Part shown: piece after piece, positions 40,601-43,600 of the stretch
Layout of the letters: the number at the start of each line of letters is the position of its first letter
Position numbering within the stretch: the stretch's first letter is position 1
Assembly (NCBI RefSeq): GCF_030013595.1
Contig: NZ_CP122768.1
Direction: 5' to 3' (one strand)
From: Escherichia coli
GTDB lineage: Bacteria; Pseudomonadota; Gammaproteobacteria; Enterobacterales; Enterobacteriaceae
DNA length: 64,000 nucleotides
Made by a program: the position numbers

Positions 40601-43600
40601 CAGGCAATCTTTGGTGCCATTCCCGCGCCTAAGCCCAGCGACGTGGCAGCCAGACTACAATATTTGAGAAAGCTGCGCCGGGTAACGCCCTGACGCCGCA
40701 TGGCCTGGTAAAATGTTTCCTCGTTATTCATATCGCACGTCTCTTCTCCTTGCGACACCGGCAGGACACCGGGCGCTTATGGTCGGCAAGCGACGTCCCT
40801 GTAGCAAGGCAAACCATCGCTTCACGTGAGATGCTGAAAACGAAAGCTCATCCTTCTGCACTGGCGCACGTCGCCAGAAAGTATTGTTAATAAAGCGTAG
40901 TGAAACTTTTGCACAAAACAATACAAACTGTATGGATTTATCTTTTAGCGATAAAAATGGACCTATTTTTCTTTTTGCCGGGCAGTGGGGATGTTTAGCC
41001 GGTTGCTAAACGAGTAAAAGAGAAGGAATTCATGGTGATGAAATGATCAATCTGCTGTTATTTCACGCTATCAATGCACTTTTGTCTGTTTTTCAGGCAA
41101 ACAAACAAATTAGGGGTTTACACGCCGCATCGGGATGTTTATAGTGCGCGTCATTCCGGAAGTGTGGCCGAGCGGTTGAAGGCACCGGTCTTGAAAACCG
41201 GCGACCCGAAAGGGTTCCAGAGTTCGAATCTCTGCGCTTCCGCCAAATAATCAAGGGGTTACCAAATGGTAACCCCTTTGCTTTTTGGGCTCTTGGTATA
41301 AACTTGGTATACCAATTGGTATATTTTCTGCCAAAAAATTCCTAAAATCCCCTCCAGCACAAACAATCACTTGCTCATTCATACTTTATCAAGAAAATAT
41401 CCTTGCAAGTTATGTTGTTTCTTTCTGCGTCCCGACAGGGTGTCATGGTTCCCCACTTCTCTCGGGATGGACACTTAACGGACGAGAAATTTTCAGGTGT
41501 CATTCAGACGCGCTTCGGCCCCGGATTGGCGAAGCGCGCTTTTTTTCTCAGATTATTTCGTTTTGCCTGAGTGTTGAATAACGCCACTACAGTTATATAA
41601 GCTGGAAATCATTCAATACTCGCACTATCGAAAGTTCACCAGCCAACCGCAGCACGTACTGCATACGTCGTGTCTGCGGTTTTTCTTTTTCACTTACATT
41701 GTGTCTGGTTCTTCCGGCCACACAATATCCGGTGCTACTGATGTATCAACACGGTTCAGCAACACCCGATACTTTTTCCAGGCTTCCAGCAACGAGTTTT
41801 CTTCCTCCGTTGCGATCTCCAGATCTACAGCATCCTGAAGTGGCGCAATATGCTCACTGGCTACCTGCATCAGGCTGTTTTTTGTTTCTTCCGCCTCCCG
41901 GATCCGGAACAGTTTTTCTGCTTCTGCATCTTTCACCCAGGCTGTGCCGTTCCACTTCTGAAACTCCCCTTCCGGCGATAACCAGGTAACATTTTCCGGT
42001 AACGGACCGAGTTCAGAAATAAATAACGCGTCCCCTGACGCTACGTCATAAACCGTTTTACCCCGATGGTCTTCAACGAGATGCCACGATGTCTCATCAC
42101 TGTTGAAAACAGCCACGAAGCCTGCCGGAATATCTGGCGTTGCAATATCGGTACTGTTTGCTGGCAGACCTGTATGAGGTGGAATGTATGCATCACCTTC
42201 ACCAATAAATTCATTAGTTCCGGCCAGCAGATTATAAATTTTTATGGTCCGTGCTTGTTCACTCATTCTGAATGCCATTATGCAAGCCTCACAATATAGT
42301 TAAATGCGATGTTTTTGACGGTGTTTTCCGCGTTACCAGCAGCGTTAACGGTGATGGTGTGTCCATGTGAGCCAATCGCAACAGAGTGCGTATGAGCACC
42401 AATACCGACAGTATGTGCGTGAGCACCTGCAGATGCAGCTGTGCCGCTGACACTATGAGTGTGCGCTCCTGCAGCACTTGTATTCACACTGGCCGCAGAC
42501 ACTACCTTATGTACTGACCCATTTTGTGACCACTGGCTGACTGCTGATGCGCCTGTGACACTATGAGTATGGTTTCCGGCACTTGCGGCTGTACCGCTCA
42601 CACTGTGCGTATGCGCCCCGGTGTTATTCGTGGATTTAGTGCCGTAATCAAACGACGATGTGGTTTTCGTCCCCAAATCCGTACTGGATGCGCTGGCGCT
42701 GTGGGTGTGCGATTTAATGCCGTCCTGTTCCTGAGACAATACGGCCCGACCACTGGCAGGTTTGCCCTTAATCGTCCAGCCACGCATATCAGGGATCACG
42801 CCTGACGGATAAGCGGCTGCAAGTTTCGGGTATGCAGATTTGTCAAAAGTCTGCCCCTGCATCAGGGCATAACCAGACGGAACGGTATCTGATGGCCACG
42901 GGATTGGTGCACCGACTGGGTAGCTTTCTGGTGGAAGATTTTTCGAGGTATAAACTTCTGCCCAGTCTTCCTCAAAACCATAACCGTCTCTTGAAGAACG
43001 GTAGAACAGACCACCATTTCTGTAATGCGCCTTCATCTGCAGGGTCCGGCAACTTCCGACTCCGGTATAGAAGTTAACCAGAATATAGCTGTTGCCTGTC
43101 CGGGTGACATTGTATGCACCAGATTTAGCATTCCACGGAACGCCTCCCTCTGACTCTGCGTGCACACCAGACGATCCAAGAGCAAAAGCAGAGACATCTG
43201 CAGCGGACAGCCTGATGTCTGATTTCAATGCCTTACCATTCACCTTACGACCAGATGGAACCCGGTCATTTGCATTATCATTCACCGCTTTCACCGCCAT
43301 TGGTGTTGCCGCCAGCGATTCACTGTCACTGTCCGTGGCACTGCTGAGCTGTACCACCCCCTTTCTCGTCGTGCTCGCATCCTCTAGCGCCACGGCAGAT
43401 GCAATATCCTCTGCCCGTTTTGCTGCTGTCTCGGCACGCGTTGCTGCAGATTCCGACGTACTTTTGCTCTGAGCTGCCGCTGTCGCACTACCAGCTGCCT
43501 CTGTCGCCTTCGTGGATGCCGTCGTGGCACTGACCTTCGCCTCTGACGCCTGTCTTACCGCCTCATCTTTTGAAGCAGACGCCGATGATGCTGATGACGC

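Follow-up and report, generated by a model that had tools for sequence, protein, structure and literature searches.

Why should two intrinsic terminators stand one behind the other beside a tRNA gene, pointing away from it, with no convincing gene in front of them? The question is raised by the spacer between the tRNA gene serT and the convergent tail fibre assembly gene tfa in a 64,000-nucleotide (nt) stretch of Escherichia coli DNA (contig NZ_CP122768.1, assembly GCF_030013595.1), referred to here at its full length as the window. We propose, with a probability of roughly 60%, that the two hairpins, T1 and T2, are tandem phage-encoded intrinsic terminators for transcription on the strand of the integrase gene int (the "leftward" direction) and that they were orphaned by integration of the phage. 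If so, the terminators beside serT no longer puzzle, since they would belong to the integrase-side transcription unit of a phage, and annotating them as a host small RNA (sRNA) would be a mistake that this reading guards against. The terminators are an ordinary kind of feature; the unannotated RNA motif to which T2 belongs is modestly interesting.

Two unidirectional hairpins in the serT-tfa spacer

The initial annotation of this interval, made from sequence alone, had described two plus-strand hairpins, each followed by a U-run, and both are present by sequence and by fold. Its coordinates placed them correctly to within a few bases, the start of T2 (41655) lying about 8 nt too far 3', and the 5' arm of T1, given there as GCGCGCTTCG, reads ACGCGCTTCG. 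In T1, 41506-41520 pairs with 41528-41540 on the plus strand, forming a stem with a 9-base-pair (bp) G+C core (41509-41517/41530-41538), a G bulge at 41518 and a 7-nt loop, and the U-run consists of seven T at 41540-41546. The hairpin belongs to a longer unit (41487-41554, plus strand) that begins with the conserved leader TTTTCAGGTGTCATTCAGAC, as seen from the fold and from homologues. The minimum free energy (MFE) of T1 is -18.9 kcal/mol (z -1.7), a value equalled by 12 of 200 shuffled sequences; despite this modest z, the hairpin is conserved in relatives with compensatory changes. T2 pairs 41645-41659 with 41667-41681 on the same strand, with a single bulge, a 7-nt loop and the U-tract TTTTTCTTTTT (U5CU5) at 41680-41690; its MFE of -19.0 kcal/mol (z -4.5) was reached by none of 200 shuffles. 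Each is a G+C-rich hairpin with an adjoining U-run, the sequence form of an intrinsic terminator, on the plus strand only. On the minus strand both still fold, but neither is followed by a U-run, so T1 and T2 are unidirectional.

A consensus terminator scan missed both T1 and T2 because its pattern tolerates no bulges. It added a third plus-strand terminator, T0, which the initial annotation had not listed and which lies at 41253-41278, immediately 3' of serT; the whole feature (41253-41288) has an 11-bp stem and a 4-nt loop followed by TGCTTTTTGG (-20.1 kcal/mol, z -4.4), and the same scan also reports it on the minus strand. The earlier statement that no convincing gene precedes the terminators is borne out, as the open reading frames (ORFs) of 98, 55, 43 and 42 amino acids in the spacer gave no match in Pfam or PHROGs.

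The spacer belongs to a prophage attachment region

What the initial annotation overlooked is that the spacer is phage DNA throughout, lying on the phage side of attL, and that the cognate gene, int, is about 45 kilobases (kb) away at the other prophage end. The gene serT (tRNA-Ser(UGA), 41158-41245, plus strand; ARAGORN and Rfam tRNA) contributes its 3' part, starting at the anticodon loop, to attL (41186-41250, plus strand), a 65-bp block made of this 3' part and AAATAA that recurs as an exact direct repeat at the far end of the prophage. The entire prophage can be seen in a locus of NZ_CM149870.1 (L006; window coordinate = L006 + 40500), which has an identical junction and in which the spacer sequence is identical to that of the window. 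In L006 the repeat is 100% identical over 65 bp between 686-750 and 46024-46088, the far copy adjoining yccA. With the element delimited by this exact repeat, all sequence from 41251 up to tfa belongs to the phage, and 41251-41693 reads as the tail-side arm of the attachment region of a lambdoid prophage.

The far end carries, on the plus strand, an xis-like gene and a tyrosine integrase gene (L006 44643-45882), next to which come attR and yccA. The Int so encoded, a tyrosine recombinase of the lambda type, shares 24% identity with lambda Int (E 6e-21). At the near end, four copies of TTGGTATA (three direct, one inverted) occupy 41293-41323 on the plus strand and account for all four matches to this motif in the window, and a further copy lies between the int stop codon and the att core at the other prophage end (L006 45913-45920). 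The cluster probably represents the arm-type Int binding sites of attP. The tfa gene (41694-42278, minus strand; ORF list; PF02413, E 1.8e-44) converges on T2, its stop codon lying 3 nt past the U-tract, and tfa and the tail-fibre genes read toward serT. T0 is a phage-borne look-alike of the serT terminator, the native copy having been left at attR (L006 46089-46125) beside yccA, and it is thus phage DNA that appears to terminate serT after integration.

When the prophage ends are joined by circular permutation, the order becomes xis, int, about 140 nt, the core, T0, the arm sites, T1, T2 and the convergent tfa. In the lysogen, T1 looks orphaned because integration separates it from int. The arrangement suggests the following course of events. 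In the excised circular phage, xis-int transcripts would cross attP and then meet T0, T1 and T2 in series, and this series would stop int-strand RNA before it entered the convergent late tail-fibre genes in antisense orientation. Integration at serT would split attP and leave the terminators about 45 kb from int, looking orphaned, and in the lysogen T1 and T2 could only catch RNA that had read through the serT terminator T0. That transcripts actually end at T1 and T2, and that the phage benefits from it, is what we infer from this anatomy.

T1 follows int across attP in related phages

The link between int and T1 can be read directly in two related viral contigs, L241 and L223, which encode an Int 55% identical to that of the prophage. 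In L241 the contiguous order is the int stop codon, ATTCCAAG repeats, the 3' part of tRNA-Ser(CGA) (reversed), T1, the T2-bearing module described below and a convergent ORF; T1 lies about 280 nt after the int stop codon, and the ATTCCAAG repeats occupy positions matching those of the TTGGTATA repeats in the window. L223 has int and then T1 at the same spacing, followed by a copy of the module that has diverged in sequence. T1 would accordingly rank as the first terminator after int-attP in this lineage and as the positional equivalent of lambda tI.

The T1 unit is also about 83% identical in prophages near zinT that carry a serU-derived core, and it is found in phages ev099 and mEp332, there without the T2 module. 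Comparison of the serT-type with the serU-type lineage reveals two positions in the T1 stem at which a C-G pair is replaced by U-A through a double change. Homology begins at about 41487, the sequence upstream being particular to each att type. On its 3' side, a linker (41555-41600, plus strand) is common to the serU-type phages and contains TTGAAT at 41574-41579, as found from the alignments and the -35/-10 analysis.

The serU-type elements deserve some comment of their own. Both in the zinT-adjacent prophages (L007, approximately 3830-3895) and in the related viral contigs (L241 4256-4314), the att core is the 3' part of tRNA-Ser(CGA) of the serU type. It is reversed relative to int, contrary to the serT-type phage of the window, and the integrases of the two types are 55% identical. 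Between the T1-module pair and the tail-fibre genes, serU-type prophages carry cargo, namely cdtABC (cytolethal distending toxin; L008 4206-6306) in one case and a gene for a GGDEF protein (L007 4460-5791) in another.

T2 is part of a conserved structured module

T2 reads as the 3' hairpin of a conserved module of about 95 nt, which in the window occupies 41601-41690 on the plus strand and comprises two helices, P1 and P2, and the U-tract at 41680-41690 (alignment A3 and covariance model). P1 pairs 41601-41605 with 41639-41643 and encloses the near-invariant AAATCATTCAATACTCGCACTATCGAAAGTTCA; P2 is T2 itself (41645-41681), with the conserved loop motif TGCATACG. Across the 102 distinct variants of alignment A3, the P1 helix has the consensus GGCUGG/CCAGCC, its interior AAUCAUUCAAUACUCGCACUAUCGAA is near-invariant, an invariance that was partly imposed by the search pattern used, and the P2 loop is conserved as UCUUGCAUACG. 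Standard pairs fill 97.2% of cells (RNAalifold, pair counts), against 22-55% when the partners are slid. Changes on both sides of a pair occur in 138 cells, against 47 in shuffles (the observed value was reached in 0 of 500), and 10 of the 19 pairs show compensatory change. A permitted G.U wobble results in 123 cells when the plus strand is read as RNA and in 19 when the minus strand is. Together with the covariation, this asymmetry indicates that the structure was selected in a transcript running with int and against the tail genes. A structure in the minus-strand (late) mRNA is disfavoured by the same 123:19 ratio, and a coding explanation was rejected as well, since no ORF family match was obtained and the open minus-strand frame across the module changes non-conservatively while the stems covary.

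The covariance model built from A3 (R1) matched the window at 41578-41698 (102 bits, E 1e-28), although this copy was part of the training alignment; independent copies scored 115 bits in lambda and 92 bits in L241. As a lower bound from two anchored scans, the module occurs in more than 150 viral contigs. Matches were found in phages HK97, mEp460, phi80, HK633, HK75 and phiP27 and in Stx phages, and a scan of species-representative genomes recovered the module in Escherichia, Citrobacter, Salmonella, Pantoea, Trabulsiella and Raoultella. Some part of the spacer was matched in 3,062 of 5,426 complete E. coli genomes and at least 80% of it in only 57, with window positions 41601-41685 supplying most of the partial matches. 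In Rfam, neither T1 nor T2 of the window gave a match, at the gathering score or at E values up to 10, and full-length module relatives and every module copy tested gave none either. Literature searches for the invariant core, in both strands and in DNA as well as RNA spelling, found no paper, and those on sib and retroregulation, on dinI with sRNA and on ea31/ea47 found nothing relevant to the module. A covariation-supported module therefore stands at the tail-fibre boundary of many lambdoid phages, lambda and HK97 among them, that is undescribed in Rfam and in the literature searched.

A DinI-family gene (PF06183) ends 10-50 nt upstream of the module in no fewer than 57 of the 133 distinct contexts, its product being either of an E. 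coli type ending in ...WESADEWFVH or of a Salmonella MsgA-like type ending in ...EEADMWLVSD. Downstream, 83 of 113 contexts examined have a convergent ORF of 100 codons or more, and in 54 of these 83 its stop codon lies between about -10 and +20 nt from P2. In many relatives, then, the module forms the 3' flank of a DinI-family gene and abuts the stop codon of a convergent tail gene. The window itself has no DinI-family ORF upstream of the module on the same strand (41251-41600), and the 3' flank of the chromosomal dinI gene has a plain terminator and no module, also by the covariance model. The suggestion of a gene remnant or 3' flank in the initial annotation was thus largely right for T2, which in many related phages aligns directly 3' of DinI-family genes and in lambda directly 3' of ea31; T1 aligns instead with the terminator that comes first after int-attP in related phages.

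About 8 nt upstream of P1, a G-TAnAAT-C box is conserved in more than 90% of the 102 variants, and it is kept whatever lies 5' of it, be it a dinI stop codon, sib, the T1 linker or phi80-type sequence. Throughout the Salmonella/MsgA-type lineage a TTGnnn box lies 16 nt upstream of the TAnAAT box, despite a variable spacer, and in the serT/serU types TTGAAT lies 18 nt upstream; the -35/-10 analysis found no usable -35 in E. coli dinI-type, HK97 or phi80-type contexts. In the window, an 11-nt deletion at 41600/41601 removes AAATCGGTAAC, carried by more than 100 homologues, and with it the TAnAAT box. Strain TK3896 (L002) shares this deletion. A plus-strand scan of 41146-41700 for consensus promoters found none.

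Further copies of the module have gone unlabelled, or have been labelled otherwise, in well-known genomes. Lambda has a full unannotated copy, 91% identical, between ea31 and ea47 (NC_001416, approximately 24,162-24,261; the model match, L005 5144-5265, minus strand, corresponds to approximately 24,143-24,264). A decayed copy of P2 only lies between the ea47 and tfa stop codons (L005 3555-3645, minus strand, 28 bits); ea47 is flanked by two P2 copies and so looks inserted between them. In K-12 MG1655 a well-preserved copy (approximately 304,198-304,318; L012 4199-4319, minus strand; 119 bits) occupies the gap between ecpE and ykgJ and has the orientation of these two genes; a decayed dinI 3' end accompanies it, and no prophage surrounds it. 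The HK633 record labels its module "attP" (JQ086377 20680-20760; L003 2486-2566) by similarity to the K-12 ykgJ-yagV (ecpE) region. This label seems to have no other basis and is doubtful, for what K-12 carries in that region is a relic of the module together with a decayed dinI end.

Weighing the explanations

Several observations weigh against T1 and T2 as plain terminators of int-strand transcription. The folding energy of T1 is not exceptional and is by itself weak evidence. T0 lies between attP and T1, and transcripts that are not antiterminated might never reach T1 or T2; conversely, antitermination of leftward transcription as in lambda, if present, would read through intrinsic terminators. 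A plain terminator model also leaves the near-invariant P1 interior, the conserved P2 loop and the TAnAAT box unexplained. Finally, only 35 of the 102 module variants have at least five T in the 9 nt after P2, and with a U-tract in only about a third of them, termination cannot be the universal or only conserved role of the module. The sequence after P2 travels with the flank of the tail gene, the TTTTTCTTTTTC tail of the window being common to mEp460-type tfa flanks. T2 would then be a canonical terminator in the present combination, its U-tract apparently supplied by the adjoining tfa flank.

Could the module instead be an independent phage sRNA gene, with the TAnAAT box as its -10 promoter element, a start at the foot of P1, P2 as its 3' end and the near-invariant P1 interior as a seed or protein-binding surface? 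The conservation of the box regardless of upstream context and the TTG boxes at 16 and 18 nt would agree with this, as would plus-strand selection on the structure and the portability of the module, which in lambda lies between ea31 and ea47. We nevertheless consider it rather unlikely, given that a usable -35 is absent in three types of context and a U-tract in two-thirds of the variants, that neither Rfam nor the literature searched contains such an RNA, and that the module is not PasB. The initial annotation had listed a small RNA as a candidate, to be abandoned if the interval aligned to the 3' untranslated region of a known gene in related phages, and the alignments of T1 and T2 given above are of this kind. 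For the window copy the idea is unsupported, the TAnAAT box being deleted and no consensus promoter having been found in the spacer, though the module family could include stand-alone sRNA genes. The opposite view, that T2 and its module are a decaying relic, a 3' flank left after loss of a DinI-family gene and functionless in this prophage, would account for the intact DinI-family ORFs upstream in so many contexts, the K-12 copy with its decayed dinI end and the 11-nt deletion of the window copy. It seems improbable to us, as both stems pair fully in the window copy, stems with compensatory changes are kept in lineages that have no dinI (HK97, lambda, phi80-type and the serT/serU types), and P2 is kept exactly at the convergent stop codon. 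A somewhat broader idea, to which we give less than even odds, is that enterobacterial temperate phages share an undescribed structured RNA, horizontally mobile and represented here by the T2 module, which stands where leftward accessory genes meet the tail-fibre operon and is unannotated in lambda and HK97. It would be either (i) an sRNA with a TAnAAT promoter or (ii) a cis-acting 3' element recognized through its invariant loops. Should the module prove to be a discrete RNA or to be bound by a factor, it could bear on the separation of convergent early and late transcription, on the expression of DinI-type accessory genes and on the exchange of tail-fibre cassettes and morons at a fixed junction.

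Two further explanations concern the position of the terminators. Insulation of the prophage against read-through from serT, a strongly transcribed gene, was among the suggestions of the initial annotation, and the direction fits, since T0, T1 and T2 are all oriented away from serT and toward the prophage interior. As a selected role we regard it as very unlikely: T0, supplied by the phage, already terminates serT; the T1-module pair also occurs in serU-type phages, in which the tRNA fragment is reversed; viral contigs with contiguous int, attP, T1 and module have no host tRNA gene upstream; and the module is found in many phages with other integration sites. Alternatively, T1 might act as sib does, in that read-through RNA would become a target of RNase III and int mRNA would decay from 3' to 5', so that integration, by parting T1 from int, would permit synthesis of Int and Xis on induction. 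The position agrees with lambda and HK97 sib/tI (about 280 nt after the int stop codon, across attP and on the int strand), and T1 is indeed parted from int in the prophage. Against this, the sequence of T1 does not resemble that of lambda or HK97 sib, the predicted fold of 41480-41700 shows no extended stem past the U-run, and T0 intervenes in this phage. An RNase III mechanism of this kind would seem unsupported and, like the relic, has little probability in our view. Termination of int-strand transcription, at T1 and T2 in tandem, is the reading that we retain.

Comparison with known systems

Pathogenic E. coli has prophage small RNAs, PasB and AgvB/AsxR, which resemble the module in being short, structured and located in non-coding gaps of lambdoid prophages. 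Neither is the same element. The site of PasB in E2348/69 is the gap between tail genes I and J; the PasB sequence differs from that of the module, and the covariance model gave no hit at this site. The anti-sRNAs AgvB/AsxR are located downstream of PR', and Rfam finds neither family in the 64-kb window. IsrC is antisense to Salmonella msgA and hence lies on the strand opposite to the module, and Rfam reports no IsrC in the Salmonella-type loci. PasB neighbourhoods are enriched for the Rfam family IS009, which also matches the tfa gene of the window: this match (RF02111, 41737-41935, minus strand, 223 bits) is 40 nt from T2, lies wholly within the tfa coding sequence (PF02413) and overlaps neither hairpin. 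As a family, RF02111 would seem to represent coding sequence for tail fibre assembly, not a small RNA. Elsewhere, in the host portion of the window, matches above the Rfam gathering score include the cspA thermoregulator (21916-22338, minus strand, 157 bits) and naRNA4 (11156-11234, plus strand, 79 bits).

Terminators that flank morons in lambdoid phages, a concept that reportedly goes back to Juhala et al. 2000, offer a parallel to T2. PMC4104026 cites this concept. Like moron terminators, the T2 module is in many relatives the immediate 3' flank of a small DinI-family gene that stands beside the tail-fibre genes and is transcribed against them. Unlike them, it persists where the gene is missing, has a second covarying helix and near-invariant unpaired sequence, and often has no U-tract.

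For the locus, a close model is lambda sib/tI, the textbook case of a terminator separated from the integrase gene by integration. In lambda and HK97, tI and sib are, like T1, on the int strand, a few hundred nt past int and across attP on the tail-side or b-side arm, and are likewise parted from int by integration. T1 differs in sequence, as a blastn-short comparison of the T1 unit with lambda and HK97 gave only 12-nt chance matches, located away from sib, and also in structure, as it has no predicted extended stem of the RNase III type. The phage of the window has, moreover, the extra terminator T0 between attP and T1, because its att core is the 3' part of a tRNA gene. HK97 shows the same layout as the excised phage of the window, its order being int, the att core, the annotated sib, the module and a convergent tfa, and its module segment, which starts 17 nt past the annotated sib, is 95% identical to window positions 41601-41682.

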